A stretch of 64,000 bases of DNA, taken from NCBI GenBank assembly GCA_000999025.1, contig LCFM01000005.1, forward strand, positions 7,087 to 71,086, given 5' to 3'. Below the pieces are notes generated by a model. That model was not told where the DNA came from, did no database searches, and saw only the letters and a program-made list of their open reading frames with translations. Each line of letters starts with the position of its first letter. Position 1 is the first letter of the stretch. Positions 15,794-43,693 of this stretch are shown piece by piece. Source of the DNA: Parcubacteria group bacterium GW2011_GWA2_43_13. Lineage in GTDB: Bacteria > Patescibacteriota > Patescibacteriia > UBA9629 > GWA2-43-13. The position numbers were made by a program, and so were the translations under genes.

Positions 15794-15830
<37 letters not shown>

Positions 15831-26124: not shown

Positions 26125-27363
26125 ATGATTATTGGTATTGACTTTTCCCGCGGTGAGATGGAACATCGCACCGGTGTGGAGTGGTATAGTCATAATATTG
26201 TTAAGCATCTACTTGATCTCGGCGCAGAGCACGAGATTGTTTTATATTCACGGAGGGGTGGGGTTTCCTCGTGTTGTAGAGATGGGGTTAACCCTGTCTC
26301 TATGGTGCATCTTCGCTGGCCATTCCGATTCGGCTGGACCCAGTTTCGTTTATCATTAGAAATGGTTCTGCGTCCGCCAGATGTATTGTTTGTACCATCG
26401 TATATTTTACCACCCATAACACCTAAACGCGTGGTAACTATGGTGCATGATGTCGCGTTTAAACGCCATCCAGAATGGTATTCTCAAAAACAAATACGAG
26501 TATTGGAATTAGGGATACGAAGGATTATTAAGAAACGTGTTGTTGTATTAGTGCCAACGGAATTTGTGAAACGAGAATTATTAAAGTTGTATCCGGAAAT
26601 GTGCGATTTGGATATTCGTGTCATTCCACATGGCGTTGATCACACGTTGTTTCGTCGTCGTTCCCCCTCGCCTTTACAAGGAGAGTCCGCTCCGCCAGCT
26701 GGTGGATGGCAGAGGGGTGAGGTGGTGGATACGAAAGTAGTACCCCCATCCCCGTATTTCCTCTTCATCGGTCGCTTGGAAAGTAAAAAAAATATTTCCC
26801 ATATTGTGGATGCATTTGTAGAGTTCGTCGGCGACGTTCCCTCGCCTTTACAAGGAGAGGGAAGGGTGAGGTCTTACGTAAAATCCGGCGACGTAGAGAC
26901 GGGGTTTCCGCCAGAGGCGGATCACCCACAGGGGGAAACTCCGTCTCTACAGACATCTCTCCTCCTCGTCGGTCGTCCTGGCCATGGTTACGAAAGATTT
27001 GCTCATAAATTGAATCATCCCAATATTCATGTTATACCATCGGTATCAGCCGAAGAATTGGTAATACTCTATCAAAATGCAATCGCATTGGTATTTTCAA
27101 CATTATACGAAGGGTTTGGTATGCCCATTCTTGAGGCCATGGCATGCGGATGTCCGGTAATCACCTCAAAAGGCGGTGCGTACGAAGAAGTGGCAGGAAC
27201 TGCCGCGTTATTGGTTGATCCTCATAATATATTAGATATTGCGGATGCAATGATAAAGATTCAATCAGGGGGCTGGAAGGAAAAAGGGTTAAAAAGAGCG
27301 CATCAATTTTCATGGGACGCATCAGCCCAACAAACATTAGCACTCGTATGCAACAAATATTGA
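26125..27363 (+). CDS. glycosyltransferase family 4 carrying in-frame repeat insertions
   Basis: N-terminal GT4 domain and C-terminal EGFGMPILEAMACGCPVITS motif. The middle (26650-26990) is built from family-A and family-B repeats translated in frame (SPSPLQGE..., VPSPLQGEG..., DVETGFPPEADHPQGETPSLQT). Confidence 0.75.
   Translation: MIIGIDFSRGEMEHRTGVEWYSHNIVKHLLDLGAEHEIVLYSRRGGVSSCCRDGVNPVSMVHLRWPFRFGWTQFRLSLEMVLRPPDVLFVPSYILPPITPKRVVTMVHDVAFKRHPEWYSQKQIRVLELGIRRIIKKRVVVLVPTEFVKRELLKLYPEMCDLDIRVIPHGVDHTLFRRRSPSPLQGESAPPAGGWQRGEVVDTKVVPPSPYFLFIGRLESKKNISHIVDAFVEFVGDVPSPLQGEGRVRSYVKSGDVETGFPPEADHPQGETPSLQTSLLLVGRPGHGYERFAHKLNHPNIHVIPSVSAEELVILYQNAIALVFSTLYEGFGMPILEAMACGCPVITSKGGAYEEVAGTAALLVDPHNILDIADAMIKIQSGGWKEKGLKRAHQFSWDASAQQTLALVCNKY
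26276..26303. repeat. family-A element copy inside GT4 gene
   Basis: GTAGAGATGGGGTTAACCCTGTCTCTAT. Confidence 0.7.
26653..26727. repeat. family-B element copy (CGTCGTCG..CCTCGCCTTTACAAGGAGAG..GGTGGATGGCAGAGGGGTGAGGTGG)
   Basis: Shares the CTCCTTTACAAGGAGAG palindrome and GGGGTGAGGT tail with copies at 26826, 28191, 29295 and 50848. Confidence 0.7.
26826..26872. repeat. family-B element copy
   Basis: CGTCGGCGACGTTCCCTCGCCTTTACAAGGAGAGGGAAGGGTGAGGT. Confidence 0.7.
26893..26950. repeat. family-A element copy with 30-nt internal loop insert
   Basis: GTAGAGACGGGGTTTCCGCCAGAGGCGGATCACCCACAGGGGGAAACTCCGTCTCTAC. Confidence 0.7.
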
Positions 27364-28781
27364 TATTTATTGTATTGGTAAGTTTGCCAGCATATTTGAT
27401 TCGGTTTGAGGTTTTTGGTATTCCAACCACGCTTTTGGAAATGGGAATTTATGCGGTGGCGTGTCTCCCGCTTCTTTACAATGAGAATCCGCTCCGTCAT
27501 CTGGCGGATGGCGGAGGGGTGAGGTGGAAGAAGAGATTCGCTGAGATGTTCCATCTGTTCAAACCATACCTCTGGCCATTACTGCTCTGGCTGGGAATGA
27601 CAACAGTGTCTGCTATAGTGAGCGCTACGTACGGGGATTGGATGTTGGGTTTTGGGATTTTGAAGGGATGGTTTTTTGATCCATTGTTGTTGACGTGGGT
27701 GGTTATGGCGTGTAGAGACGTGGCGGTGCCGCGTCTCCGTGGGAACGTGCCAGGTGGAGACGCCCCAGCGAGGCGTCTCTACAATATGCGTCTATTACTC
27801 GCCACAGGCCTTCTTGCTTCTGCGCTTATAATCAGCGCGTATGGATTATTTGATTACATGATGGGTTGGACGCGTGATGGTAGGTTAGATGCATTTTTTA
27901 AAACTTCAAATTATGTGTCCATGTTTATTGTGCCGGTATTGATATTGGGAGTAGGAATGATTGTAGAGACGCCCCCCTGGGGCGTCTCCGTCGCGCGCTG
28001 GAAATCGGCGCTGATGATCATTGTCATGATTATGATAACTACCGCTCTTATCCTCACCAATTCTTTTGGCGGCTGGATAAGCGCGTTGATTGGGGTAGTT
28101 GTTTTTTTCGTTTTTTTCTTACGACACCAAACACCCCCTTCCTGTCCCTCTTCCCATCACAAGGATGGGGCACAGCAAGAGGGGAGCGATCGTCGTCCCC
28201 CTCTCCTTTATAAGGAGAGGGTAGGGGTGAGGTGTTGGCGCATAGTTTTTATACTCATATCTCTCATGGTTCTTGGTGCTTTCGTCTGGTACGGCTTACC
28301 CCGTCACTTTACTCACCGCAACGAATTTTTTAATGTAACATCTTCCCAACTGCGACAAAATTTATGGCGTGTGGCAGGGGATATGGTGCAAACCCATCCG
28401 ATACTTGGTGTGGGGCTGGGAAGATTTCAAAAAGAATTGCCAATTCTTATAAAACAAAAACCGCACCTTTTGACGGTTCAAACGATATTAGTTGATTTTC
28501 ATCTTCCGCATAATTTATATCTGACAATCGCATCAGAATCCGGGCTCATCGCCTTGCTTGGTTTTCTATGGTTTATCGGGTTATGGTTATGGCGTGGAGC
28601 AAAACAATACATATCAACCCGTGATCCTATACTTCTCGGCGCACTCTGCGCCATGCTTACTATTCTCATCCACGGCTTTGTAGACACTCCATATTTTAAA
28701 AATGATTTATCGATATTGTTTTGGATAGTAGTGGTGATTGGAGTTTTGTCATCCTCAGAACGGAAGTATACCGTTTTGTAG
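27312..28781 (+). CDS. O-antigen ligase/polymerase-like (Wzy_C family) polytopic membrane protein carrying five in-frame repeat copies
   Basis: Multi-TM. GVGLGRFQKEL...HLPHNLYLTIASESG resembles the O-antigen ligase domain. True start may be the ATG at 27348. Family-A copies at 27712, 27756 and 27963, and family-B material at 27503 and 28191, are all read in frame. Confidence 0.6.
   Translation: MGRISPTNISTRMQQILIFIVLVSLPAYLIRFEVFGIPTTLLEMGIYAVACLPLLYNENPLRHLADGGGVRWKKRFAEMFHLFKPYLWPLLLWLGMTTVSAIVSATYGDWMLGFGILKGWFFDPLLLTWVVMACRDVAVPRLRGNVPGGDAPARRLYNMRLLLATGLLASALIISAYGLFDYMMGWTRDGRLDAFFKTSNYVSMFIVPVLILGVGMIVETPPWGVSVARWKSALMIIVMIMITTALILTNSFGGWISALIGVVVFFVFFLRHQTPPSCPSSHHKDGAQQEGSDRRPPLLYKERVGVRCWRIVFILISLMVLGAFVWYGLPRHFTHRNEFFNVTSSQLRQNLWRVAGDMVQTHPILGVGLGRFQKELPILIKQKPHLLTVQTILVDFHLPHNLYLTIASESGLIALLGFLWFIGLWLWRGAKQYISTRDPILLGALCAMLTILIHGFVDTPYFKNDLSILFWIVVVIGVLSSSERKYTVL
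27712..27738. repeat. family-A element copy
   Basis: GTAGAGACGTGGCGGTGCCGCGTCTCC. Confidence 0.65.
27756..27782. repeat. family-A element copy
   Basis: GGAGACGCCCCAGCGAGGCGTCTCTAC. Confidence 0.65.
27963..27989. repeat. family-A element copy
   Basis: GTAGAGACGCCCCCCTGGGGCGTCTCC. Confidence 0.65.
28191..28232. repeat. family-B element copy
   Basis: CGTCGTCCCCCTCTCCTTTATAAGGAGAGGGTAGGGGTGAGGT. Confidence 0.7.
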
Positions 28782-28829
28782 AGACGGGGTTCCATAATCA
28801 CAAGGGCGTGGCAAGAACCCTGTCTCTAC
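28778..28829. repeat. family-A element (long-loop variant) at convergent gene junction; probable bidirectional terminator
   Basis: GTAGAGACGGGGTTCC...GAACCCTGTCTCTAC. Its GTAG and CTAC termini are the stop codons of the plus-strand gene (TAG 28779-28781) and of valS on the minus strand (28826-28828). Confidence 0.7.
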
Positions 28830-31660
28830 GCAAGCTTGTTTAATTTTTTTTGCGCTTGGTGGAGTTTAGATTGTTCGGTTTGTATGACTGCTTTGGGCGC
28901 CTTTGCGAGGAAATCTTGATTTGAAAGTTTTTGCTCAAGAGATGTGATGTAATGTTCCAATTCTTTTTTTGCTTTATTGATTTTTTTATCATCGCGCGGG
29001 ATGTGCAGGGTGAGGGAGATACCATGTTCGTGGATAGTGTGGCCTTGGGTGTTTGTTTTGGTTTGATTGATAAATGTTACGCGTGCCAGTTTTTCGATGA
29101 GGAGGATATTGGGGGATATTCGGCGTTGTAGAGACGGGGTTAACCCCGTCTCTACAACGAGCGACGGTTCTATTTTAAACTCCGCCCGCGCGTTGCGGAT
29201 GGCTGTGATGATGGCACGGATAGTGGCGTGGTGTTTGAGGGCAGGTGAGGATTTAATGGTTGGTGATTTGGGGTAGGGGGCGATGAGGATCAATGACGAC
29301 GACACACCCTTCTGCCCCCTCTTAATAGAGGGGGAAACATCGTCGTCGTCCCCCTCTCCTTTACAAGGAGAGGGTAGGGGTGAGGTTAAGGAGGGGGTGG
29401 TATTTAATTCTCCCCACACTTTTTCCGTAATAAACGGGATAAACGGATGCCAGAGGCGTAACAGAGTTTGTAAAATATATAATAATATTTCGTTTTTTCC
29501 CTGTTCAATCTTTACAATCTCCACATACCAATCTGCAAATTTATCCCAGGTGAATTCGCGCAATTTTTCTCCGGCTGGTGAAAATTCAAAATTATCCATG
29601 TGCTTGGTAACATCATGGATCAAGATATCTAATTCTGCCAAAATCCATTCATCACTTAATGTTTGTGCTTTTGGTTTTTTTTCTATCAACTGTGGTGTAT
29701 CAACGGTGGTAAGAATAAACCGCGAGATATTCCAGAATTTATTGATAAAATTCCTAAACCCTTCAATTTTTTCCTCATACATTTTTATGTCATTACCCGG
29801 GGTGGAGCCGATAATTAAGGATAATCGCAACGCATCTGTGCCGTATGTTTGAATCATCTCTACTGGATCAATCCCATTGCCTAATGATTTTGACATTTTT
29901 CTGCCTTCTTTATCCCGCACCATCCCGTGAAGATACACGGTTTTAAAGGGGATTTGTTTAGTGTTATAGGTTGTCATTAAAATCATACGCGCAACCCAAA
30001 AGAATAAAATCTCATACCCTGGCGCCATGACTGAAGTTGGGTGGAATGTTTTAAAATCAGGCGAGCGTTTCAGCCATTCGGCAAGGGATTCATCTTTTTT
30101 TATTTTCGTATCAAGTAGGGTTGAAAATGTCCACAAGGCAGACGAGAACCATGTGTCCAATGTGTCCGGGTCCTGGGTAAACGTGGTGCTTCCACAGCGC
30201 TTGCATTTTTTAGGTTGCTCAATACTGGCGAGCGGGGGGCACGATTTTTTGATTTCGTCCGCCAGCTGGCGGATCGGATTTCGGATTTTTGTTTCGCAAT
30301 ACCAAACCGGCACTCTGTGTCCAAACCAAATTTGGCGGGAAATGCACCAGTCCTGTAAATTATTTATCCAGTGAAAATATGTTTTTTTAAATCTGCTCGG
30401 CAAAATTTCAATATCCTCGGATTTAACCACATCAATGGCAACTTCCTTGAGTGTTTTCTTTTTTCCTTTCCATACAACAGCTGGTTTATCCACGCTCATA
30501 AACCATTGCAAAGAAAGATACGGCTCAACCACTGCATCACAACGATAACAATGCCCAATATTATGTATGTGTTTTTCTGTTTTTTTCAGCAGTCCACGTT
30601 GTTGTAATTCCTCAATAATAAGTTTGCGAGCATCAGCAACAGCCCAGTTTTTGTATTTTCCGCCGTGATCATTGAGTGTGCCGTCAGGGTTGAGGATATT
30701 GATATATGCAAGATTGTGGCGTTTAGCGATTTGATCATCATTAAAATCATGCGCAGGAGTTACCTTTACCGCGCCGGTTCCAAATGAGGGGTCCACATGT
30801 CTGTCCGCAATGATTGGAATTTCGCGATTTGCAAGCGGAAGGGTAACAGTTTTGCCAATAAGATGTTTGTATCGTTCATCTTTTGGGTTGACTGCAACGG
30901 CCGTGTCGCCGAGCATGGTTTCCGGACGGGTTGTTGCGACGGTTATTTTGCCCCCCCCTCCTAAGGTAGGATGGGGTGGGGGGAGGTCTGAATTTTTTAT
31001 CGGATAATCAATATAATACAATATTCCTTCTGTTTCCGCGTATTCCACTTCGTCATCCGCAAGCGTGGATTCACATCTTGGACACCAATTGACCAACCGA
31101 TTGCCGCGAACAATCAATCCGTCGTTGTACATGTTTACAAATACTTTTTGTACGCATTTGGTAAGCACAGGCGACATGGTATATGCTTCGCGCGACCAAT
31201 CGCAACTTGCGCCTAATTTTCGCAGTTGATGTTCTATGGTTGTTTTTGATTCTTCAACATACTGATTCACGCGTTCCAAAAATTTTTCACGCCCTAAATC
31301 GTGCCGGGTTTTTCCTTCTTGCGAGATTAGTTTTTCTACCTTATTCTGAGTGGCAATAGCGGCATGATCCACACCCGGCACCCATAGTGTTTTTTCTCCT
31401 TTCATGCGGTGATACCGTACAATCACATCGTGCAGAGATGTTTCCATGGCATGGCCAAGATGCAACACCCCGGTTGCGTTCGGCGGTGGCATCATTAAAG
31501 AGAATGGCTTTATCTTTTTTCCTGAATAATGATCTGGATTAAAAAATCCTGACTGCTCCCATTGTCGGTATATGCCATCCTCAATTTTTTGAGGATCGTA
31601 TTGTTTGGGTAATTCGGCCTGTTTCCGCGTTTTTGATAGTTTTTTAGTGCCTTTTTTCAT
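28826..31660 (-). CDS. valS: valine--tRNA ligase
   Basis: HIGH (PNATGVLHLGHA) and KMSKS (KMSKSLGNGIDP) motifs, editing domain. 944 aa including approximately 60-80 aa of repeat-derived insert near the C-terminal coiled coil. Confidence 0.95.
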   Translation of the reverse strand: MKKGTKKLSKTRKQAELPKQYDPQKIEDGIYRQWEQSGFFNPDHYSGKKIKPFSLMMPPPNATGVLHLGHAMETSLHDVIVRYHRMKGEKTLWVPGVDHAAIATQNKVEKLISQEGKTRHDLGREKFLERVNQYVEESKTTIEHQLRKLGASCDWSREAYTMSPVLTKCVQKVFVNMYNDGLIVRGNRLVNWCPRCESTLADDEVEYAETEGILYYIDYPIKNSDLPPPHPTLGGGGKITVATTRPETMLGDTAVAVNPKDERYKHLIGKTVTLPLANREIPIIADRHVDPSFGTGAVKVTPAHDFNDDQIAKRHNLAYINILNPDGTLNDHGGKYKNWAVADARKLIIEELQQRGLLKKTEKHIHNIGHCYRCDAVVEPYLSLQWFMSVDKPAVVWKGKKKTLKEVAIDVVKSEDIEILPSRFKKTYFHWINNLQDWCISRQIWFGHRVPVWYCETKIRNPIRQLADEIKKSCPPLASIEQPKKCKRCGSTTFTQDPDTLDTWFSSALWTFSTLLDTKIKKDESLAEWLKRSPDFKTFHPTSVMAPGYEILFFWVARMILMTTYNTKQIPFKTVYLHGMVRDKEGRKMSKSLGNGIDPVEMIQTYGTDALRLSLIIGSTPGNDIKMYEEKIEGFRNFINKFWNISRFILTTVDTPQLIEKKPKAQTLSDEWILAELDILIHDVTKHMDNFEFSPAGEKLREFTWDKFADWYVEIVKIEQGKNEILLYILQTLLRLWHPFIPFITEKVWGELNTTPSLTSPLPSPCKGEGDDDDVSPSIKRGQKGVSSSLILIAPYPKSPTIKSSPALKHHATIRAIITAIRNARAEFKIEPSLVVETGLTPSLQRRISPNILLIEKLARVTFINQTKTNTQGHTIHEHGISLTLHIPRDDKKINKAKKELEHYITSLEQKLSNQDFLAKAPKAVIQTEQSKLHQAQKKLNKLA
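29128..29155. repeat. family-A element copy (canonical) inside valS
   Basis: GTAGAGACGGGGTTAACCCCGTCTCTAC perfect 28-bp palindrome. Translated as VETGLTPSL. Confidence 0.8.
29295..29386. repeat. family-B composite element inside valS
   Basis: GACGACGAC...CCCCCTCTTAATAGAGGGGG...CGTCGTCGTCCCCCTCTCCTTTACAAGGAGAGGGTAGGGGTGAGGT. Translated (minus strand) as SPLPSPCKGEGDDDDVSPSIKRGQKGVSS. Confidence 0.7.
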
Positions 31661-31760
31661 ACTATTATAGAGTAGCGATTTTTAGCGGTTTTATCAACAA
31701 GTATTGGCCCAACGCCCTCTGTATCTCTCTTTCGATGTGCGATGCGAATGAAGGCAGTTT

Positions 31761-32897
31761 TTATTTTAGCCGCAGATTTGGATCTGCGGTTATTTTTCTG
31801 TAATCTGTTTTTTGTTTTGAGTATTTTGTTTTTACCAATGCGGCGATGGCGATCATGGCGGCGTTGTCAGCCGAGGTGCCGGGGAGAGGGAAGCGGAGAT
31901 CAGTTTTCGGTTTTCGGTTTTCAATTTTCAGTTTTTCTGTGAGTTGGTTTCGGAGGTGTTGATTTGCGGCGACACCGCCACCGACAACAAGGGTTTTAAT
32001 ATGGTAGTGTTCAACTGCTCGCAGGGTTTTTATAACTAACACATCAATTGCCGCGTTTTGAAATTCGCATGCGACTTGCGCGCGATTATAATCGGGGTGT
32101 TTTTCTATCAAATATCGCACTGCGGTTTTAAGTCCCGAGTAACTGAAGTTGAAGTCAGGAGAATCAATCATCGGGCGAGGGAATGTTATGGGCAATCCTA
32201 ATCTACTAATAACATCCGAATCTACGAATACGGGGCTGTCGTCTGTAGAGACGGGGTTAACCCCTCTTCTATGGTGTATTATTTGTAGATTAGGATGCAT
32301 TCGTATATTGGGATTGCTCCATTCGGATGCCTCTTGTTCTATCGCTGGACCGCCAGGATAGGGAAATCCTAAGAGTTTTGCTACTTTATCAAATGCTTCG
32401 CCCACCGCATCATCAATCGTTGTCCCGATAATCTCAAAATCATAGTGCTGTTTCATAAGCACCAATTGCGTGTGTCCGCCAGATACCAACAGCGCAAGCA
32501 CGGGAAATTGAAAATCATCAACATTTTTTAGTGTTGAGTAAATATGGCCAGCCATGTGGTTTATAGGAATGAGCGGTTTATTCCATGCCAGTGCCAGCGT
32601 TTTTGCCGTCTCTACGCCGATATGCAATGCCGCTATAAGACCGGGGCCCTGCGTTACGGCAATGCCGTCTATATTTTGATACGAAATATGAGCGGCATCA
32701 AACGCTTGTGTGATAACAGGGATGATATTGAGGATATGGTTACGCGCGGCAATTTCCGGTATGACGCCACCATATTGTGCGTGAATTTTGGCTTGCGATG
32801 CGATGATATTTGACACAATAGCAATAGCACCATTTGTTTCTTGTACAATGGCGGCCGCGGTTTCATCGCATGATGATTCAATTCCAAGGATGATCAT
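31761..32897 (-). CDS. tsaD: tRNA N6-adenosine threonylcarbamoyltransferase TsaD (Kae1/YgjD family) carrying in-frame repeat insertions
   Basis: MIILGIESSCDETAAAIV..., HMAGHI and GGVAAN motifs. Start moved to ATG 32897. Contains a nested family-C/family-A insert (32192-32316) and a family-D heptamer array (31897-31945). Confidence 0.9.
   Translation of the reverse strand: MIILGIESSCDETAAAIVQETNGAIAIVSNIIASQAKIHAQYGGVIPEIAARNHILNIIPVITQAFDAAHISYQNIDGIAVTQGPGLIAALHIGVETAKTLALAWNKPLIPINHMAGHIYSTLKNVDDFQFPVLALLVSGGHTQLVLMKQHYDFEIIGTTIDDAVGEAFDKVAKLLGFPYPGGPAIEQEASEWSNPNIRMHPNLQIIHHRRGVNPVSTDDSPVFVDSDVISRLGLPITFPRPMIDSPDFNFSYSGLKTAVRYLIEKHPDYNRAQVACEFQNAAIDVLVIKTLRAVEHYHIKTLVVGGGVAANQHLRNQLTEKLKIENRKPKTDLRFPLPGTSADNAAMIAIAALVKTKYSKQKTDYRKITADPNLRLK
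31897..31945. repeat. family-D heptamer tandem array (CAGTTTTCG GTTTTCG GTTTTCA ATTTTCA GTTTTTC)
   Basis: Five degenerate 7-mer units, in frame in the tsaD C-terminus. Related arrays at 16414, 16851 and 51996. Confidence 0.6.
32192..32316. repeat. composite nested element: family-C palindrome with a family-A element (32245-32272) inserted at its centre, inside tsaD
   Basis: GCAATCCTAATCTACTAATAACATCCGAATCTACGAATACGG-[GTAGAGACGGGGTTAACCCCTCTTCTAT]-...ATTTGTAGATTAGGATGCATTCGTATATTGGGATTGC. Compare the insert-free copy at 26029-26122. Confidence 0.75.
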
Positions 32898-33018
32898 AAT
32901 ACTTTCCACATTAACGGAATTTTGTTTTGCGGTAAAGTATAGTTGACTTGATATGAGGATTTCGTTATCCTTGCTTATGTTTAGATGAGACGAAAAGGTG
33001 TTATACACATGAAATCAA

Positions 33019-33090
33019 GGCCCCTTCGTCTAATGGTTAGGACGGCAGGTTTTCATCCTGTAAACAGGGGTTCGATTCCCCTAGGGGCTA
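33019..33090 (+). tRNA. tRNA-Glu (anticodon TTC)
   Basis: GGCCCCTTCGTCTAATGGTTAGGACG..., anticodon loop TTTTCAT, T-loop GGTTCGATTCC. CCA not encoded. Confidence 0.8.
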
Positions 33091-33094
33091 CATA

Positions 33095-33130
33095 TAAAAT
33101 AACCGCCGTAAAAGCGGTTATTTTATATTA
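33095..33130. terminator. rho-independent terminator after tRNA-Glu
   Basis: AACCGCCGTAAAAGCGGTT hairpin followed by ATTTTATATT. Confidence 0.6.
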
Positions 33131-33194
33131 GTGTTTTAATATGAGATATGGCTTTAGTTGCGTTTTATTCAGCTGTTTTCTATACTATCACTAT

Positions 33195-33674: not shown

Positions 33675-33676
33675 TA

Positions 33677-33898
33677 ATGATTCCTATGATTGCGGGGGTG
33701 ATTGAACGATTTGATGATTATTATGTTGTGATTCGCACTCGTGAGGGGGAGATTCTGTATTGGCCAAAACGAGATATACCCAAAGATAGCGTTCCTGGTG
33801 CTATAGTATATGCAATGCTTTCTTCTCAACCGTATACTCATCCTTTGCAAGTGGATCCAAAGCATATTCTCAATACGTTATTGCTTGGATCAGAATGA
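33677..33898 (+). CDS. small DUF3006-like protein
   Basis: 73 aa. IERFDDYYVVIRTREGEILYWPKRDIPKDSVPG resembles the DUF3006 pattern. Confidence 0.4.
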   Translation: MIPMIAGVIERFDDYYVVIRTREGEILYWPKRDIPKDSVPGAIVYAMLSSQPYTHPLQVDPKHILNTLLLGSE

Positions 33899-35832: not shown

Positions 35833-35840
35833 AAACAAAA

Positions 35841-35957: not shown

Positions 35958-36066
35958 TTCTATTTTTGTCGTAGAATGCAAAGATGTATAAAGACCGAAC
36001 ATGATACCATGAGTTTGCTTATATGTCAAGGATTATTTTATTTGTCCTTGTTTTAGCTAAAAATCT

Positions 36067-37068
36067 ATGGAACGAGTGATCGTACCCGATGAATTGGAAG
36101 AGGACACTGGTGTGGAGCAGACGCTTCGGCCAGCATGGCTTGCTGATTATATTGGGCAATCAAAAATTAAAGAGAATATCCGTATTTTTATTTCTGCCGC
36201 AAAAATGAGGCAAGAACCATTGGAGCATGTGTTACTCTATGGTCCGCCCGGCCTTGGCAAAACAACTCTTGCGCATGTTATAGCTCATGAAATGGGAACG
36301 CATATACGGGTTACAAGTGGACCAGCTATTGAACGCGCAGGAGATTTGGCTTCTATTTTAACCAATCTTTCTGATGGAGATATTTTATTTATTGATGAAG
36401 TTCATCGTTTAAACCGGCTTATTGAAGAGGTTTTGTATCCTGCTATGGAGGACTATCATTTGGATATTATTATCGGGAAAGGGCCTTCAGCTCGGACGGT
36501 TACAATAGATCTTCCTCATTTTACGTTAATAGGAGCGACAACGCGCGCCAGTTTAATTTCGTCTCCGCTTAGGGATCGTTTTGGCAGTGTGTTTCATCTG
36601 GATTTTTATTCTCACGAGGAAATGAATGATATTATTCAACGTTCTGCTCGGATTTTGTCATTAGCTATTGAGGATGCGGCCACACAGGAAATTGCTCAAA
36701 GATCTCGTAAAACGCCTCGAATAGCGAATCGTCTTTTGCGTCGCGTGCGTGATTACTGTCAAGTAAAAGGGGATGGGAGTATTGGGCATTCAATGACAAA
36801 AGAGTCGCTTGCTCATTTAGATATAGATCATCTTGGTCTTGATTCGGTTGATCGAAAAATACTTCAATTTATTATTGAAAAATATCAAGGCGGTCCTGTC
36901 GGATTGGGAACCATTGCGGCGGCAACGAGTGAAGAAGAGGCGACGATAGAAGATGTGTATGAGCCATTTTTAATACAAATCGGATTTTTGCATCGCACCC
37001 CGCGTGGCAGAATGGCGACTCCTGCGGCATATGACCATTTGGGAGGAGAAGAAAGGAAGTTGCTATGA
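36067..37068 (+). CDS. ruvB: Holliday junction branch-migration ATPase RuvB
   Basis: Walker [12 protein letters not shown], Walker [11 protein letters not shown], sensor and winged-helix regions. Confidence 0.95.
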
Positions 37069-37150
37069 TTCCAAATGCCAGTTTTCAGTGATCACATGTC
37101 TCCGTCAGTTGGCGGATTAAATGTGACATTTGAAAACAGGTATTTGATCT

Positions 37151-38185
37151 ATGAATACTTCATTGTTTGATTATCATCTTCCAAAAGAGCTCATAGCTCA
37201 TGAGCCAATAACACCCCGCGATTCAGCGCGGGTGTTTGTTGTGGAGGGGGAGGTGCGTCATCATGATTTTTTTTATAATATTGGGAAATATGTTAAAAAA
37301 GGCGATATTCTTGTGCGTAATGTTACAAAGGTGTTTCCAGCGCGTCTTTATGCTACAAAAATGACTGGAGGTAAGGTAGAGATTTTATTAGTCCGTCCAT
37401 TAGACGGTTCTCGATGGGAGTGTTTAGTAGGGGGACGCGCAAAAGACGGGATGGAGGTGCGATTCGATTGTAGAGACGTGCCCTTGGCACGTCTCTCGGA
37501 AACGCCCCAGGGGGGCGTCTCTATGATATGGATTATAGATTTCGGGCAAAATATAGATAACCTTGGAACACTCATTGAAACCGCAGGTCAAACGCCCGTG
37601 CCACCATATATTCACACCGATATGGCGGAGCAGGAATTGCGCGACCGATATCAAACAATATATGCGCATAAAAGTGGTTCAGTGGCGGCGCCAACCGCTG
37701 GCCTGCATTTTACTGATGAATTGATAGATCAGTTGAAACGCCAAGGTATTGAATTTTTAGACATTATTTTGCATGTGGGGATTGGCACTTTTTTGCCTGT
37801 AAAAACGAAAAACGTAGAAGATCACTCTATGCATGCCGAGTATGTAGATATCTCAAATGAGGTTGCACAAAAAATATGTTCAGCAAAATATGAAGGCCGA
37901 CGTCTCATCGCTATTGGAACAACTACGACCCGTGCGCTTGAGGCGTGCGCAGATACACTGTTATTAGGTAAAGGATATACAGGCGAGGTGAATATATTTA
38001 TAACGCCTGGATACGAGTTTCGTATGATTGATGGATTGGTGACTAATTTTCATCTTCCAAAATCAACATTACTCATGCTGGTTTCTGCGTTTGCAGGCCG
38101 TGAAAATATCCTTTCTTGTTACCAAGAGGCCATTGCATTGGGCTACACATTTTACTCTTTTGGTGATGCAATGCTGATAAGTTAA
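37151..38185 (+). CDS. queA: S-adenosylmethionine:tRNA ribosyltransferase-isomerase QueA carrying two tandem family-A insertions
   Basis: MNTSLFDYHLPKELIAHEPITPRDSARV... and conserved QueA blocks. 37469-37523 translates as DCRDVPLARLSETPQGGVSM. Confidence 0.9.
   Translation: MNTSLFDYHLPKELIAHEPITPRDSARVFVVEGEVRHHDFFYNIGKYVKKGDILVRNVTKVFPARLYATKMTGGKVEILLVRPLDGSRWECLVGGRAKDGMEVRFDCRDVPLARLSETPQGGVSMIWIIDFGQNIDNLGTLIETAGQTPVPPYIHTDMAEQELRDRYQTIYAHKSGSVAAPTAGLHFTDELIDQLKRQGIEFLDIILHVGIGTFLPVKTKNVEDHSMHAEYVDISNEVAQKICSAKYEGRRLIAIGTTTTRALEACADTLLLGKGYTGEVNIFITPGYEFRMIDGLVTNFHLPKSTLLMLVSAFAGRENILSCYQEAIALGYTFYSFGDAMLIS
37469..37495. repeat. family-A element copy
   Basis: GTAGAGACGTGCCCTTGGCACGTCTCT. 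Confidence 0.65.
37498..37523. repeat. family-A element copy (partial left arm)
   Basis: GAAACGCCCCAGGGGGGCGTCTCTAT. Confidence 0.6.
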
Positions 38186-38412
38186 AAATACGCTGAAATA
38201 AGCCAAAACATGTCTTTTATGGTTGACTTTTTTATGCCAGTGCGCTATACTGTATACAGGTAATTTGAGATTGGATAAGCCCGTAATCGGTACTATGGTA
38301 ACGGGTTTTTTATTTCCACCTTGATGGGTGGCCATCCCTCTTTTGAGGGGGTGCAATAGAACGAGAGGAATGCCACGGATTATGTGTAAGATAGTGCTAT
38401 TCCTTTTGTTCT

Positions 38413-38988
38413 ATGCGGCTCATGTCATATAAAAAATATCTCATAACAATCCATCGGTTTCGCCTCGGATTTGGCATTGCCGCGCTGGTGTTTTTGATGC
38501 ACGTGCTGTTTCCTCAATATGTGCTTGCAAATACTTCCCAGCAGTTTGGAGTGGCGGTACTTGAATTTCCATTAAATGGTGAATGGTTACCTTCAAAAGA
38601 TTTGGTACCTACGGTGGCATCGGTGTATACAGATACAACAGATCAAAAAATTGTTCAAAGTCCTGATTATCAAGTTGTATGGGATCGGTACATGACCATT
38701 ACAGCATATTCCAGTACCCCTGATCAAACAGACGGATCGCCGTATCTTGCGGCTCGGGGTCATGTGGTGCATTGGGGTATGGTTGCGGCCAATGATTTGA
38801 AAATTGGAACACAGGTTCGTATGCCGGATTTATTCGGTGATCAAGTTTTTACTGTACTTGATCGCATGAATGCGCGATACAGTGGCGGATGGCGATTGGA
38901 CGTATGGATGCCGGTGCGTGATGATGCAAAGCGATTTGGCAAACGATATACGCGAGTGGAGATTGTACAGGAAGAAGTATCCCAGTAA
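38413..38988 (+). CDS. 3D-domain (MltA/YabE-like) cell-wall-binding protein with N-terminal membrane anchor
   Basis: C-terminal approximately 100 aa has the 3D-domain pattern (ITAYSSTPDQTDGSPYLAARG...WGMVAANDLKIGTQVRMPDLF...VLDRMNARYSGG). Confidence 0.6.
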   Translation: MRLMSYKKYLITIHRFRLGFGIAALVFLMHVLFPQYVLANTSQQFGVAVLEFPLNGEWLPSKDLVPTVASVYTDTTDQKIVQSPDYQVVWDRYMTITAYSSTPDQTDGSPYLAARGHVVHWGMVAANDLKIGTQVRMPDLFGDQVFTVLDRMNARYSGGWRLDVWMPVRDDAKRFGKRYTRVEIVQEEVSQ

Positions 38989-39000
38989 AATAAATATTAA

Positions 39001-39031
39001 AAAACGGCCATTTCTATCGGCCGTTTTTTAG
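39001..39031. terminator. bidirectional terminator between convergent genes
   Basis: AAAAACGGCCATTTCTATCGGCCGTTTTTT. Confidence 0.6.
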
Positions 39032-39495
39032 TTATGCATGATTTTTAGCGCTGTCAGCGCATAATGGCGGATATGATCGCGGATATCGAGGGTTGGATCA
39101 GTGAGTTCTTTTTTGGTAAACCAGTGGATGTCTTCGCTTTGTTCTTTGCCTTCGTTTTTGACAGTATTGGTGTGCGTTATTGCAAAGTAGGTGAATGTGA
39201 TGTGCTCGTGGGAGTCGCTGATTCTGTGGCGGTTCATAAACATCGGTGGAATCAATTCTGTATAATCATGTGTCTGAATATCAAAGGGTCGTAACGCATC
39301 ATAGAGAGTTATATTAAGGGCTACCTCTTCTTTTACTTCCCTGATTGCGGCTTGATTGGGATCTTCATCTAATCCAATATGTCCGCCAATACTTAACCAT
39401 ATGTTATATTTATCATGTTTCCGTAATAACACGGTGTTTTGATAAACAATAAACACCTCTGTCGTAAAATCTGTTTTTTCATGGATGTGTGGCAT
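39028..39495 (-). CDS. NUDIX hydrolase
   Basis: Nudix box GGHIGLDEDPNQAAIREVKEEVAL. Confidence 0.8.
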   Translation of the reverse strand: MPHIHEKTDFTTEVFIVYQNTVLLRKHDKYNIWLSIGGHIGLDEDPNQAAIREVKEEVALNITLYDALRPFDIQTHDYTELIPPMFMNRHRISDSHEHITFTYFAITHTNTVKNEGKEQSEDIHWFTKKELTDPTLDIRDHIRHYALTALKIMHN

Positions 39496-39559
39496 ATTAC
39501 CAGAGGATACATTTTATATCTCTACACAGAGTCAATGGCAGGTGGTGGCGAGAATCGAG

Positions 39560-39636
39560 TGGGAGGCAACGGCGGGAATCGAACCCGCGTATAAGGGTTT
39601 TGCAGACCCATGCCTTACCACTTGGCTACGTTGCCT
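39560..39636 (-). tRNA. tRNA-Cys (anticodon GCA), CCA encoded
   Basis: Reverse complement AGGCAAC...GTTGCCT acceptor. Anticodon loop CTGCAAA at standard positions 32-38. T-loop GGTTCGATTCC. 3-bp D-stem. Confidence 0.7.
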
Positions 39637-39811
39637 CTCACTCGATTGAATCGCTCCGCACCTTTCCGTTCAATGGGTTTTGGTATTCAACGGAAGAGAG
39701 CGAAGCGGCTCCGCCTCACATCTATGATTTTAAAGAAGATCATTCGCGAGAAAGGTGTGGGGTTGCAGACCCCATGCCTGACCATTGTTGGTTTGTCATT
39801 TGTGTCGGCTT

Positions 39812-39839
39812 GCAGAGACGGGGTTAACCCCGTCTCTGC
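39812..39839. repeat. family-A element copy (GCAGAGACGGGGTTAACCCCGTCTCTGC) in the polA upstream region
   Basis: Canonical centre GGGGTTAACCCC. Located between tRNA-Cys and the polA start. Confidence 0.7.
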
Positions 39840-39957
39840 AACTAAAAACACATCAACTGTACCAAGATTAGTGCCAAAATGCAACTATTCAAAAAGGATG
39901 GAGGAAGGTATACTGGTTGGAGTAATACCACCTCATCTCTCTTGGGGAGGCCGAACT

Positions 39958-42678
39958 ATGAAACGAGAAAAACTCATGATAATTGACGGTAATGCGTTAG
40001 TGCATCGAGCATGGCACGCGATTCCGCCAACCATGAAAACATCAAAGGGTGAGGTAGTGAATGCGGTGTACGGCGTTACCCTTGCTTTGTTGCGGGCGTT
40101 AAAAGATCTTCAGCCGACATATGCGATTATGACATTTGATGAAAAAGGTCCGACATTTCGAGACGAGTTGTTTGATGCATACAAAGCCAATCGCGAAAAA
40201 AAACCAGACGAACTCTATGCCCAAATCCCCCGTATTCGTGAGGTTGCAGAATCGTTAGGTTTGTTTTGCGTGAGCAAACAGGGGGTTGAGGCAGACGATG
40301 TTATTGGCACACTTGCTGAATTATTTAAAAAAGGCACTGATGTTGAAATTTTGACAGGTGATTTAGATACGCTTCAACTTATTGAGGATAACGTAACAGT
40401 GTTTACCTTTAAGCAGGGGGTAAAGGATATGGTAGTGTATGATACTGCCGCAGTTGTTGCGCGATATGGACTGGTGCCGGATCAGATGATTGATTTTAAA
40501 GCGCTACGCGGCGATCCATCGGATAACATTCCCGGGGTAAGGGGGATTGGGGAAAAGGGGGCGATTGAGTTGTTGAAAGAGTTTAAGACGTTGGAGAAGT
40601 TATATGGGTTTTTGGAGAACAGCACCATCCCGTCTCACTTACGGGGATCCACGATAAAGAAATTGAAAGAAGGGAAGAAAGATGCATTCATGAGCAAGGA
40701 ACTTGCTACTATTAAGAGGGATGTGAGTGTTGCGATTGTCAAAGAAGATGCCGAATGGCAAAAAGGAGATACTATTAAAGCACAACATCTTTTTACAGAA
40801 CTTGAGTTTAAATCGTTGTTACCGATTCTCCAGAACTTGAAAAAAGATAATAAAGAAACCGTACTACCATTGGCAATCGAACAGTCCTCTGATGGGCACG
40901 TCTATCGTCTTGTAGAGTTAGATGAGGATATTGTTGCATTGTGTAAAAGAATAGAAAAACAAGAGATTTTTTCTATTGATACAGAAACCACCAGTTTAAA
41001 TCGGTTGGAAGCGCGGGTGATTGGCATCAGTATCTGCTGGAAAGCAGGGGATGCGTATTATATTCCGTTCCTTGGGGATCGACGGCCGGAACAGTACAAA
41101 GAATTAGTGAAATTATTAGAATCAACTGCGTGCAAAAAAGTTGCTCATAACGCAAAATATGATATTGAGGTTTTGGCAAATCACGGAATTACAGTGCACG
41201 GTATGGCTTTTGATACGATGATTGCGGCATATTTATTGCGACCGGATGCCGCAAGTTATAGCTTGGATAATTTGGCATTTTCGGAATTTGGACATCAGAT
41301 GATTCCCATTACATCGTTAATAGGGTCGCGCGGTAAAAATCAAATTACCATGGATATGGCGCCATTGGATAAAGTTGTGGAATACGGGGCAGAAGACGCG
41401 GATTATACATGGCAATTGTATGAACGTCTTGCTCAAGACATTACAGATGAGCAGTTAAAAAAAGTGTTGCTTGATATAGAAATGCCGCTGGTTGAGGTGC
41501 TGGCACGGATGGAGCGTAATGGAGTTGAATTGGATGTTCCATTTCTTAAGAAGATGGGCAAGGAGCTGGGAGACAAACTTTCTAAACTTGAACAAAAAAT
41601 TTATTCATATGCGGGGCGGGAATTTAATATTAATTCTCCCAGCCAGTTAAGCGAAATATTGTTTGATGATTTACAGCTTTCAACTCGCCACGCAAAAAAA
41701 CGAATAAAAGGATTTTCAACTGCGAGCGATGTGTTGGAGCGGCTGGAGCACGAACATCTTATTATCCCATGTATCATGGAATATAGAGAATATTCAAAAC
41801 TTAAATCAACCTATATTGATGCCTTGCCCAAGATGGTAAGCACGCAGACAGGTCGTCTACATACTGACTATAACCAAGCCGTTGCGGCCACCGGTCGTTT
41901 GTCATCCAGTAATCCTAATTTACAGAATATTCCGATTCGAACCGAGGTAGGCAGAAAAATACGTCATGCATTTGTGGCGCCAAAGGGGAAAGTGCTTGTT
42001 GCGGCGGATTATTCTCAAATAGAATTGCGATTGGCCGCGCATTTAGCCAATGACGAAAAGATGATTCAAATTTTTAAAGATAAGAGAGATATTCATACCG
42101 AGACAGCGGCTGTTATCAATAATGTTGATATTAAAGATGTGACGTCTGATATGCGACGGGCCGCTAAAGAAGTAAATTTTGGCGTGCTATATGGAATGGG
42201 CTGGCTGGGGCTTTCGCAACGCACTGGTATTTCGCGCGACGAGGCACAGCGTTTTATAGAACAATATTTTGCGCTTTTCCCTAAAGTCGCGGAATATGTA
42301 GAAGAGACAAAGGCGCTTGCGCGAAAATTGGGATATGTTGAAACCGCATTTGGTCGCAGGCGATATTTGCCAGATATGAATGCCACTGCTCCTCAATTGC
42401 GCGCTCTGGCAGAGCGCATGGCAGTGAATACTCCATTACAGGGGACTGCGGCCGATTTAATGAAACTTGCCATGATTGCGATTGATAAAAAATTACAAGA
42501 CAGGGAATTGATAATTTTGCAAGTACATGATGAGCTTGTATTTGAAGTTTCTGAACATCGGGCAGAGGATGTTGCGAACATGGTGGTTGAAGAAATGGAA
42601 ACAGTAGAAAAATTTCGTGTACCGATAGTTGTGGAAGTGCATGTTGGCCATAATTGGGGAAGTATGAAACCATTATGA
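39958..42678 (+). CDS. polA: DNA polymerase I
   Basis: Start at ATG 39958 with GGGGAGG RBS. 5-prime-nuclease domain, 3-5-prime exo-like domain and polymerase motifs A-C (DYSQIELR, RRAAKEVNFGVLYG, QVHDELVFE). The ORF-track extension back to 39610 overlaps tRNA-Cys. Confidence 0.95.
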   Translation: MKREKLMIIDGNALVHRAWHAIPPTMKTSKGEVVNAVYGVTLALLRALKDLQPTYAIMTFDEKGPTFRDELFDAYKANREKKPDELYAQIPRIREVAESLGLFCVSKQGVEADDVIGTLAELFKKGTDVEILTGDLDTLQLIEDNVTVFTFKQGVKDMVVYDTAAVVARYGLVPDQMIDFKALRGDPSDNIPGVRGIGEKGAIELLKEFKTLEKLYGFLENSTIPSHLRGSTIKKLKEGKKDAFMSKELATIKRDVSVAIVKEDAEWQKGDTIKAQHLFTELEFKSLLPILQNLKKDNKETVLPLAIEQSSDGHVYRLVELDEDIVALCKRIEKQEIFSIDTETTSLNRLEARVIGISICWKAGDAYYIPFLGDRRPEQYKELVKLLESTACKKVAHNAKYDIEVLANHGITVHGMAFDTMIAAYLLRPDAASYSLDNLAFSEFGHQMIPITSLIGSRGKNQITMDMAPLDKVVEYGAEDADYTWQLYERLAQDITDEQLKKVLLDIEMPLVEVLARMERNGVELDVPFLKKMGKELGDKLSKLEQKIYSYAGREFNINSPSQLSEILFDDLQLSTRHAKKRIKGFSTASDVLERLEHEHLIIPCIMEYREYSKLKSTYIDALPKMVSTQTGRLHTDYNQAVAATGRLSSSNPNLQNIPIRTEVGRKIRHAFVAPKGKVLVAADYSQIELRLAAHLANDEKMIQIFKDKRDIHTETAAVINNVDIKDVTSDMRRAAKEVNFGVLYGMGWLGLSQRTGISRDEAQRFIEQYFALFPKVAEYVEETKALARKLGYVETAFGRRRYLPDMNATAPQLRALAERMAVNTPLQGTAADLMKLAMIAIDKKLQDRELIILQVHDELVFEVSEHRAEDVANMVVEEMETVEKFRVPIVVEVHVGHNWGSMKPL

Positions 42679-43655
42679 TCATTTTTTTTTACGGCGAAGA
42701 TACATTTCGCGCTCATGAAAAAGTTGAGGAGATAAAGGCGAAATTCATGCGTGAGATTGATGCGACTGGCAATGGCACCACAAGCGTTGATAGTCAAGAT
42801 ATTGTTATTGACGATCTTGCTCGGCTTATGGCAAGCGGGGGCGGGTTTTTTAGTGCAAAGCGGTTGATTATATTGAAAAATCCTTTTTTTGCAAAAAAAG
42901 CATGGAAAGATGCGTTGTGCGAATTGATTCCTTCTTTTATCACAGAAACAGGGAGTGATGCGAATATGTTGTTGATTTGGCAGGCCGGCAGTATTGATAA
43001 GCGGGAGGCATTGTGGAACAGTTTAAAAGATGCGCCATTTAAACAGGAGTGGGTACTTTTGCAAGGCGGATTATTGAGTCAGTGGGTCAAGAAGCGATTC
43101 GAGCAGTATGGTATGGAGTGCGATTTTGATGCGCAGATGTTGTTAGAAGCGTGCGTTGGTCCTGATCTGTGCCATATGAATCATGAAATAGAAAAAGTGA
43201 GTGCGTATGCCATGGCGCAGGGAAGGTCGGGCGTTATTTTGAGCGATGTGCAACAGTTGGTAGAAGCGCGGTTTAATGACGATATTTTTGGACTCATGGA
43301 TGCTGTAAGCGGTAAACAGAATCAAAAAGCAGTGTTTTTACTGAATGATCAATGGCGTGCTGGAGCCGATCCTTTGTATGTCTTGGGTATGCTTATTCGT
43401 CAGTTTCGGATTTTAGCATTAGTCAAACACAAGAGTGATATTACACCGGTTTCAGCTCGCAGTATTGCTCAAGAATTATCACTCCATCCTTTTGTTGTAG
43501 AAAAAGCAATCAAGCAGAGTAAAAATTTTTCATGGCATCGTTTGATTGAGGCGTATCATGCGCTGGTGCGCGTGGATTCAGCGGTAAAAACCAGCGCGTG
43601 TAAAGGAGAAGAGATGGTGGCATATTGTATTGCAAGAGTATTGCTTTCTTCGTGA
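42675..43655 (+). CDS. holA: DNA polymerase III delta subunit
   Basis: MIIFFYGEDTFRAHEKVEEIK... N-terminus typical of HolA. ATGA overlap with the polA stop. Confidence 0.7.
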   Translation: MIIFFYGEDTFRAHEKVEEIKAKFMREIDATGNGTTSVDSQDIVIDDLARLMASGGGFFSAKRLIILKNPFFAKKAWKDALCELIPSFITETGSDANMLLIWQAGSIDKREALWNSLKDAPFKQEWVLLQGGLLSQWVKKRFEQYGMECDFDAQMLLEACVGPDLCHMNHEIEKVSAYAMAQGRSGVILSDVQQLVEARFNDDIFGLMDAVSGKQNQKAVFLLNDQWRAGADPLYVLGMLIRQFRILALVKHKSDITPVSARSIAQELSLHPFVVEKAIKQSKNFSWHRLIEAYHALVRVDSAVKTSACKGEEMVAYCIARVLLSS

Positions 43656-43665
43656 TATAAAAATA

Positions 43666-43693
43666 ATGAGACGCCCCAACGGGGCGTCTCTAC
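43666..43693. repeat. family-A element copy at convergent junction holA/rpsT; probable bidirectional terminator
   Basis: ATGAGACGCCCCAACGGGGCGTCTCTAC, 10 bp after the holA stop and 12 bp after the rpsT stop. Confidence 0.7.

Follow-up and report, generated by a model that had tools for sequence, protein, structure and literature searches.

How does one short palindrome come to be read in frame inside several unrelated essential genes? The question is raised by a 64-kb stretch of DNA from Candidatus Jacksonbacteria (Parcubacteria; candidate phyla radiation, CPR), hereafter the window, in which a palindrome of 28–29 nucleotides (nt), here called family A, recurs within the genes for valyl-tRNA synthetase (ValRS), TsaD, QueA, and two cell-envelope proteins. 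A first-pass annotation of the sequence had likened these copies to the Rickettsia palindromic elements (RPEs). We find that family A is very probably a GTAG-tagged "double-foot" repetitive extragenic palindrome (REP), cognate of REP-associated tyrosine transposases (RAYTs, also TnpA_REP) of subclass 2.4, the HUH-Y1 enzymes of Bertels group 4.

Family A Is an Overrepresented DNA Hairpin

Counted over both strands, the window contains the 9-mer GTAGAGACG 13 times. Dinucleotide-preserving shuffles predict 0.23 occurrences, and the observed count was attained in 0 of 100 of them. When a unit was defined as paired GTAGAGACG and CGTCTCTAC arms with at most one mismatch, 13 units were obtained (Table 1), at coordinates that agree within 1–3 nt with those first reported. 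The basic unit consists of (T)GTAGAGACG, a GC-rich self-complementary core of 10–11 nt, and CGTCTCTAC(A), 28–29 nt in total; three units carry extra apical sequence or are paired head to head (26893–26950, 28778–28829, and the pair 27712–27782). The foot reads GTAG...CTAC in most copies, with the variants GTGG (27754), GCAG/CTGC (39812), and ATAG (418).

Folded as DNA hairpins, 10 of the 11 stretches tested were far more stable than their shuffles (z -3.9 to -8.5). For intact copies folded as single-stranded DNA, the free energy (dG) ranges from -12 to -20 kcal/mol and the z-score from -5 to -8.5, and the 29128 copy together with its flanks (29124–29159) forms a perfect palindrome of 36 nt. 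The degenerate copy in TsaD showed no significant fold. A covariance model (R1), built mainly from family-A copies of other phyla, recovered all 13 units in the 64 kb and nothing further, with E-values from 5e-9 to about 1 (the weakest being the TsaD copy) and scores of up to 43.8 bits. The initial observation is confirmed. A half-site at 32607 was rejected as an element because it is native TsaD sequence ('GVETAK').

The copies are strongly clustered, whether by local hopping or by local tolerance: seven of the 13 lie within 3 kb (26276–29155), a stretch that takes in the two cell-envelope genes and valS at its 3′ end, and a span of 17.4 kb holds 11. Further family-A copies were found in the 10 kb to the left of the window. 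No Rfam family matched at its gathering score. Among the sub-threshold hits, all treated as noise, a match to the Bacteroides small RNA BTnc201 (32239–32342, plus strand) scores 27.5 bits where the gathering score is 105. It coincides in part with the TsaD REP, and the Rfam model of BTnc201 may contain a family-A REP.

The Same Palindrome Recurs across Phyla

We scanned one genome per GTDB species for the pattern GTAGAGACG-SSS-N4-6-SSS-CGTCTCTAC and found it exactly in at least 120 stretches from many phyla, against about one expected by our own estimate. The palindrome is not special to this kind of genome. Among the matches listed, the hosts are Bacteroidota (Bacteroidales), Chloroflexota, many Cyanobacteria, Acidobacteriota, Gamma- and Deltaproteobacteria, Ignavibacteria, Spirochaetes, Fibrobacteria, Latescibacterota, and several Patescibacteria, and the commonest cores are CGCCATGGCG, CCCCGGCGGGG, and GGGCATGCCC. 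The cyanobacterial hosts include isolates, such as Scytonema PCC 10023 and Fischerella PCC 7414. Intragenic copies in other phyla lie within real genes, including those for ChlH/CobN, SecA, HypF, Ser/Thr kinases, and a type ISP restriction-modification enzyme. The flanking sequence is random except for T at -1 and A at +1, with no consistent longer duplication. In IMG/VR the pattern was present in 7 viral contigs only; the idea of a phage vector was rejected, as there was no sign of a mainly viral element.

In an alignment of 62 distinct copies, 97% of the cells are paired. The nine outer pairs show little or no variation, while the four inner pairs alternate between CG, GC, UA, and AU with pairing kept and with 92 cells altered on both sides. 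The covariation score of the inner stem was attained in 0 of 500 shuffles and was lost once the partners were slid. Thus, selection or the process that generates the copies acts on a hairpin with a fixed foot. Invariant arms, unrelated coded peptides, and covariation of the inner stem together agree with the initial view of family A as a DNA-level palindrome and not a protein module.

Family A Is Linked to RAYT Genes of Subclass 2.4 in Other Genomes

Which genes accompany the palindrome? We clustered 2389 open reading frames (ORFs) from the 120 loci, which had been chosen by the palindrome alone. One cluster consisted of eight proteins of 180–225 residues (about 190), from eight of the 120 loci in different phyla. 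These proteins match Pfam Y1_Tnp (PF01797, E 2e-8), and their sole NCBIfam match, which falls below the equivalog cut-off, is to 'REP-associated tyrosine transposase' (NF047646, E 1e-15 to 3e-17); they share the motifs MPNH[VIM]H, (F)xWQ, and YIxNNP. Seven of the eight genes contain the palindrome in frame between their HuH (NH[VIM]H) and Tyr (YIxNNP) motifs, and five of those seven have an additional copy immediately beyond a gene end. At the eighth locus (L037), which ends within the gene, a copy is located immediately upstream. Two of the RAYT-linked loci are themselves CPR, from Peribacteria (L043) and Moraniibacteriota (L120). None of the other protein families recurrent near the repeat among these ORFs could be tied to it. 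As candidate partners, a larger cluster (cluster 0) proved to be of multidomain proteins, and a smaller one (cluster 2, six loci) includes protein kinases; both were rejected.

The RAYT family, which JGI labels 'REP element-mobilizing transposase RayT', is large: one search at E<=1e-15 gave more than 6900 members. The HuH-Y linker contains a recognisable REP peptide in 44 of the 101 nearest relatives of the CPR protein and in 91 of the 120 closest members, the latter figure coming from a biased profile query. Homologs that resemble subclass 2.4 (P0264–P0282) carry another in-frame peptide, VGATHASPL(Q/R), at the same linker position. It probably derives from a different, GTRG-footed REP family, so that the presence of a REP within the RAYT gene would not be tied to one REP sequence. 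Directly upstream of the RAYT gene of a Chloroflexia metagenome-assembled genome (L059, 1954–2110), one full REP precedes an array of nine half units of 16 nt (GGCRGGGCGTCTCTAC) that end in CGTCTCTAC, and runs of the form VETPR.VETPR..VETPRRGVST are the coded counterpart in RAYT proteins. Such an array may have arisen through successive rounds of cleavage and rejoining at the foot, or through slippage.

This arrangement is that of a published class. TnpA_REP subclass 2.4, equivalent to Bertels group 4 (Quentin, Siguier, Chandler, and Fichant 2018, BMC Genomics 19:475, PMC6006769), has the HuH motif NH[IFV]H, the motif WQ, the Y motif YIxNNP, and a median length of 194 residues, and its hosts are given as Cyanobacteria, Bacteroidetes, 'and various phyla'. 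Its REPs are long or 'double foot', with 5′ GT[AG]G and 3′ C[TC]AC, and in-frame REPs within tnpA_REP, between HuH and Y, are unique to this subclass; Table S1 of that paper gives GTAGAGACGCACGGCCGTGCGTCTCTAC (Chloroflexus aggregans), GTAGAGACGTTGCATGCAACGTCTCTAC (Cyanothece), and GTAGAGACAGGGCATTGCCCTGTCTCTAC (Emticicia, A variant). Family A shares with these REPs the 9-nt feet GTAGAGACG/CGTCTCTAC, a length of 28–29 nt, and a GC-rich inner stem. The repeat class itself is thus already known, and family A is neither a new class of element nor a new RPE-like system. It departs from the published description in four respects: the host belongs to CPR/Patescibacteria, which the taxonomic summary of PMC6006769 does not name; no cognate gene was found in the 74 kb examined; the copies are mostly intragenic; and the GGGTTAACCC inner stem of six window copies was not encountered elsewhere, either at sister loci or at the 120 cross-phylum loci. 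The class is thereby extended to Patescibacteria/CPR. The identity of the 9-nt foot from Cyanobacteria to CPR points to strong constraint, which should reflect DNA recognition by the subclass 2.4 RAYT.

Most Copies Are Read in Frame within Genes

Host genes were assigned from gene calls and Pfam hits (Table 1). As first described, nine of the 13 units lie inside long, intact reading frames, and the peptides quoted for them were correct; the other four (418, 28778, 39812, and 43663) are intergenic. An assignment of the 39812 copy to the interior of polA was rejected, since it depends on a 5′ extension of the ORF that gene callers do not use.

Table 1. Positions, settings, and folding of the 13 family-A units, with the genes that hold them (window coordinates; dG in kcal/mol)
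Positions	Unit or gene	Setting and coded peptide	Fold	Model score
418..446	REP ATAGAGACG-CCCCGACGGGG-CGTCTCTAC	intergenic; 8 nt 3′ of 728-aa ORF 455-2641 (-); tRNA-Ser 248-337 (-) adjoining	dG -14.2, z -8.2	41.5 bits
26119-27363 (+)	GT4 glycosyltransferase	2 units inside		
26276..26303	REP GTAGAGATGGGGTTAACCCTGTCTCTAT; GGGTTAACCC subfamily with 3 mismatches	in frame in GT4; CRDGVNPVSM		
26893..26950	compound REP; feet GTAGAGACGGGGTT...CCGTCTCTAC around ~30 nt of nested apical palindromic sequence	in frame in GT4, inter-domain linker, adjoining family-B repeat; VETGFPPEADHPQGETPSLQ	dG -21.4, z -7.1	
27312-28781 (+)	Wzy_C/O-antigen-ligase-like protein (Wzy-like)	3 units inside		
27712..27740	REP GTAGAGACGTGGCGGTGCCGCGTCTCCG; first of head-to-head pair	in frame in Wzy-like gene; pair jointly read as CRDVAVPRLRGNVPGGDAPARRLY		
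27754..27782	REP GTGGAGACGCCCCAGCGAGGCGTCTCTAC; second of head-to-head pair	Wzy-like gene; see 27712		37.7 bits
27963..27991	REP GTAGAGACGCCCCCCTGGGGCGTCTCCG	Wzy-like gene; VETPPWGVSV	z -5.8	
28778..28829	compound REP	between convergent Wzy-like (+) and ValRS (-) genes	z -5.0	
28826-31660 (-)	ValRS	1 unit inside		
29128..29155	perfect REP GTAGAGACGGGGTTAACCCCGTCTCTAC	in frame in ValRS; VVETGLTPSLQ	dG -19.7, z -8.1	43.8 bits
31761-32897 (-)	TsaD	1 unit inside		
32245..32272	degenerate REP GTAGAGACGGGGTTAACCCCTCTTCTAT	TsaD; HRRGVNPVST	z -1.45	12.4 bits
37151-38185 (+)	QueA	2 units inside		
37470..37497	REP GTAGAGACGTGCCCTTGGCACGTCTCTC; first of tandem pair	QueA; pair 37470-37524 codes residues 107-125 (CRDVPLARLSETPQGGVSM)	pair: dG -21.1, z -6.9	
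37498..37524	REP GGAAACGCCCCAGGGGGGCGTCTCTAT; second of tandem pair	QueA; see 37470	see 37470	
39812..39839	REP GCAGAGACGGGGTTAACCCCGTCTCTGC; compensated foot variant GCAG/CTGC	intergenic, between tRNA-Cys 39560-39636 (-) and polA	dG -17.2, z -8.5	
43663..43693	REP (A)ATGAGACGCCCCAACGGGGCGTCTCTAC	between convergent holA (42654-43655 +) and rpsT (43705-43977 -)	z -7.1	

Because the palindrome carries TAG in one of three frames on either strand, only two frames can be open, GTA GAG ACG (VET..) and x-GT AGA GAC G (.RD..), and every intragenic copy uses one of these. The peptides that result are unrelated (VET..SL against.RD..VST) while the 9-nt arms are invariant. The reading frames are intact, and the survival of copies only where they are in frame, as first proposed, is nearly automatic, since the third frame holds a stop. 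Similarly, the occurrence in both orientations reported at the outset says little about an element that is a near-perfect palindrome.

The 21-kb core of the region is ~92% coding by the sum of its gene calls, so nine of the 12 core copies in genes is no enrichment, and the intergenic 8% holds three of the 12. In CPR genomes, which measure ~1 Mb and are densely coding, genes are unavoidable for REPs.

The intergenic copies lie mostly at the 3′ ends of genes, where co-option is possible. The 28778 unit supplies two stop codons: TAG at 28779–28781, in its left foot, ends the Wzy-like gene, and CTA at 28826–28828, in its right foot, ends the ValRS gene on the minus strand. The ValRS stop falls within a REP foot in a sister species (L129) too. 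The minus-strand hairpin at 43668–43690, followed by ATTATTTTTA and located 15 nt 3′ of rpsT, is the top terminator-like site of the region, and it is the only one of the 13 units that qualifies by terminator-like scoring. A nature as intrinsic terminators was therefore rejected for family A as a whole; the role has been co-opted by single copies.

Sister Species Share Sites but Not Inner Stems

Syntenic loci were found through QueA homologs at 73, 68, and 58% identity (L127/L128, L129, and L130, respectively). The C-terminal site of ValRS holds a single GGGTTAACCC unit in the window, a decayed unit (core CCCTCGGGGG) in L127, and two units (core ACCCCCTGGGG) in L129; in L130 it is empty. At the QueA site, the window, L127, L129, and a fourth ortholog (P0003) have sequence that derives from REPs and varies in its middle part, and no REP-derived sequence is found in orthologs at 57–58% identity. 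The holA/rpsT copy stands at the same site in the window, L127, and L130. The TsaD loop has a different set of short repeats in each species; the window insert amounts to ~40 extra residues relative to TsaD of E. coli, Salmonella, and L130.

The GGGTTAACCC core is found in six of the 13 window copies and is absent from the syntenic loci of the three sister species and from all 120 cross-phylum loci. As this species-restricted core also occupies sites that are already occupied in relatives, copies were probably gained or converted within this species after the split. The first-pass annotation had predicted lineage-specific insertions in loops. This holds in part: some sites, such as TsaD and the GT4 linker, are net insertions relative to orthologs; the ValRS, QueA, and holA/rpsT sites, in contrast, are occupied in two sister species, and at QueA and ValRS there is no net insertion at all.

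QueA has 344 residues, the same length as REP-free orthologs and crystallised enzymes, and its residues 107–125 align with a segment of equal length. In the AlphaFold model of QueA (mean predicted local distance difference test score, pLDDT, 91), this segment comprises a strand (112–117) and a low-confidence loop (118–125) whose tip (121–123) has pLDDT <50. The ValRS peptide VVETGLTPSLQ stands opposite IIDAVVAAKPA when aligned with L130; a weak local alignment with T. thermophilus ValRS places it opposite VRVYLEGE-TA. Neither comparison shows a net change of length. The simplest reading of both sites is an insertion followed by a compensating deletion, with replacement a less likely alternative.

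The RuvB and QueA proteins of the window are identical to NCBI proteins labelled Candidatus Jacksonbacteria. Six other assemblies of the locus (L001–L006; NCBI, ENA, and JGI) are 99.8–100% identical to the window and show no indels. An apparent 209-bp deletion in one of them (L004, 9726–9727, GCA_003485785.1; window 39605–39813), which removes half of tRNA-Cys and ends at the 39812 REP, was rejected as an NN-marked assembly join across short repeats.

How Did the Copies Spread?

What is the mechanism that distributed family A? By inference from the REP family, the hairpin would extrude in single-stranded DNA, and a Y1 enzyme may recognise the hairpin with its GTAG foot, cleave, and religate. 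Copies would then spread through the genome and new inner-stem subfamilies would emerge. In a gene-dense genome most landing sites would be genic, and a copy would be expected to persist where the frame lacks TAG and the protein tolerates ~10 added or substituted residues. Occasional copies may have been co-opted, as the terminator behind rpsT and as the stop codons of the Wzy-like and ValRS genes. The window copies were presumably moved by a RAYT and are probably translated. That they are still mobile in this genome is much less certain.

Several points weigh against this explanation. RAYT-driven transposition of REPs is undemonstrated in vivo, even in E. coli, and has the status of a hypothesis in both papers on which the comparison draws (PMC3733652 and PMC6006769). 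No RAYT or Y1 gene was found in the window or the 10 kb to its left (74 kb; tblastn, with a six-frame profile search of the window), no homolog in the syntenic 12–21 kb of L127, L129, and L130 (tblastn and profile), and no Jacksonbacteria-labelled RAYT among the best 120 hits to a CPR RAYT protein. The six other assemblies of the locus show no presence/absence polymorphism, so we infer mobility in this genome and do not observe it. The intragenic share of the units (nine of 13) runs counter to the extragenic location for which REPs are named, although the family is accepted to include a minority of REPs within genes (PMC3733652, PMC6006769). Finally, the QueA and ValRS copies add no length, which simple insertion does not predict.

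Could the copies be old relics? Here they would be immobile remnants of ancient REPs, kept for hairpin function (as terminators, stabilisers of mRNA 3′ ends, or stop codons) or for coded residues now integral to the proteins, with their palindromes maintained by hairpin-templated correction. Part of the evidence agrees: the ValRS, QueA, and holA/rpsT sites are common to species at 68–73% QueA identity, and the rpsT copy is shared even at 58%; that copy is the best terminator-like site of the region; another supplies two stop codons, one of them retained in L129; the QueA copy codes a modelled beta-strand; and no RAYT was found nearby. We consider this explanation possible but rather unlikely. 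The GGGTTAACCC subfamily is restricted to this species among the sequences examined and occupies sites that have other stems in the sisters, a single unit in 13 is terminator-like, and the unrelated peptides of the two frames leave no common protein function to preserve. Moreover, a relic state describes what the copies are now and not where they came from, so it is compatible with an origin as RAYT-cognate REPs.

Alternatively, REPs may overwrite native sequence, spreading by replacement or conversion through Y1 strand exchange at hairpins or through template switching, perhaps even without a resident RAYT if the enzyme acts in trans from acquired DNA. This proposal accommodates the 10–18 REP-coded residues that occupy the position of a native strand and turn at QueA and ValRS with length unchanged, and the species-specific inner stem found here at sites that are occupied in sister species. 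We nonetheless hold it to be doubtful. If true, such replacement could alter segments of essential proteins and give rise to new stop codons and terminators.

Two further explanations are very improbable. One is a classical MITE (miniature inverted-repeat transposable element), a deletion derivative of an insertion sequence with a DDE transposase, moved via terminal inverted repeats with target-site duplications. Family A is indeed built of inverted repeats, is dispersed, and weakly prefers T/A at its two flanking positions, but 28–29 nt is far below MITE size (50–500 bp), the entire unit forms a single hairpin whose inner pairs covary, no duplication extends consistently past the single T/A, and the associated gene is HUH-Y1, not DDE, with no other family recurrent among the 2389 ORFs. 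The other, about equally improbable, is a peptide or structured RNA motif under selection, as the in-frame copies and their conservation at some sites among related species might suggest; yet the frames yield unrelated peptides in unrelated host proteins, the conservation lies in the DNA feet, no Rfam family matches, and four copies are intergenic. Chance or an assembly artefact, for which only general caution over metagenome-assembly sources speaks, is practically negligible, given that none of the 100 shuffles matches the count, that NCBI, ENA, and JGI assemblies independently hold the same sequence, and that the repeat occurs in cyanobacterial isolate genomes.

Comparison with Other Palindromic Repeats

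Taken as a double-foot REP, family A can be compared with other tagged palindromes. The GTAG-tagged REPs described in several phyla by Di Nocera, De Gregorio, and Rocco (2013, BMC Genomics 14:522, PMC3733652) favour the 3′ ends of convergent or co-directional genes, and in-frame REPs inside known genes, including replication and repair genes, are documented there. Family A has in common with them the GTAG tag, a stem-loop, dimers and clusters, a bias to 3′ ends, and in-frame genic copies. In the families of that paper the tag is unpaired at one end, whereas in family A it is paired with its complement, and the string GTAGAG is absent from the text of that paper and from the supplements searched.

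In Rickettsia (R. conorii), the intragenic RPE-4 and RPE-6 are CGTC-tagged REPs for which no dedicated transposase is known (PMC3733652). Like family A, RPEs are palindromic DNA repeats read in frame within essential genes; their tags are unrelated (CGTC against a GTAG foot), and they are confined to Rickettsia. The parallel first drawn with RPEs is thus sound as an analogy of behaviour and fails as an assignment to a family, since the element already bears a name, GTAG double-foot REP, and has a candidate mobiliser. RPE-1 is a longer palindromic insertion, of about 100–150 bp.

E. coli REPs and bacterial interspersed mosaic elements (BIMEs; TnpA_REP subclass 2.2) and the Pseudomonas REP doublets (REPINs) resemble family A in the GT[AG]G foot by a hairpin, in the single-copy Y1 gene flanked by its REPs, and in the single-strand cleave-and-rejoin mechanism that has been proposed. 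They differ in that their stems are longer, bulged, and single-footed, in the doublets, in their nearly always extragenic location, and in their Proteobacterial hosts. The small dispersed repeats (SDRs) of Nostocaceae, which Elhai and colleagues reportedly described in 2008, are said to be palindromic mobile cyanobacterial repeats of 21–27 nt that nest in one another. A later paper did not find SDRs outside Nostocaceae. Literature searches by sequence or peptide (GTAGAGACG/CGTCTCTAC, the full palindromes, and VETRHGASL) returned primer coincidences or nothing, and none of the literature found ties REPs to CPR/Patescibacteria, an absence that is not proof of absence.

New here are the double-foot REP class in a CPR host, Ca. 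Jacksonbacteria, mostly in frame in essential genes; a GGGTTAACCC subfamily that is confined to the window among the sequences examined, with shared sites that differ in their inner stems; and two intragenic sites without net change of length, together with one copy that provides the TAG stops of two convergent genes. CPR genomes offer a natural test bed for how REP-coded sequence is tolerated by ValRS, TsaD, and QueA and for the co-option of REPs as terminators and stop codons. For the annotation of CPR proteins, REPs account for unusual segments of low complexity, for differences in length, and for spurious extensions at the N terminus.

Other Repeats and Local Features

Family A is not the only short repeat in these genes. 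A second palindromic family (family B), CCCTCKCCTTTAYAAGGAGAGGG, often followed by TAGGGGTGAGGT, occurs at 26665–26687, 26839–26861, 28199–28234, 29352–29386, and 50860–50882. It is also read in frame, as SPSPLQGE(S/G) in GT4, PPLLYKERVGVRC in the Wzy-like protein, and SPLPSPCKGEG in ValRS, and related peptides appear at the ValRS site of L127 and L129. A third palindrome, TCCGCCAGCTGGCGGA, has five copies (26691–26706, 27493–27508, 30258–30273, 37101–37116, and 51374–51389); the one at 30258 falls within PPPHPTLGGGG, a segment of ValRS that is missing from the enzyme of T. thermophilus and from those of L127, L129, and L130.

The fourth repeat (family D), GCAATCCTAATCTAC/GTAGATTAGGATTGC, is GTAG-footed as well and is found at 26029–26043, 26108–26122, 32192–32206, and 32285–32299. 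Its last two copies are inverted arms between which the family-A copy of TsaD is nested, forming a composite of ~110 nt.

The 16S rRNA gene of the window (14449–15836, minus strand) covers the full 1533-position Rfam model in 1388 nt, with no adjacent 23S gene in the window; a short 16S gene and unlinked rRNA genes are consistent with a CPR genome. To the left of the window (L138, 18953–21727), six small T4SS_pilin genes (PF18895) stand in tandem, with family-A REPs on either side, at 18872–18943 and 21803–21880.

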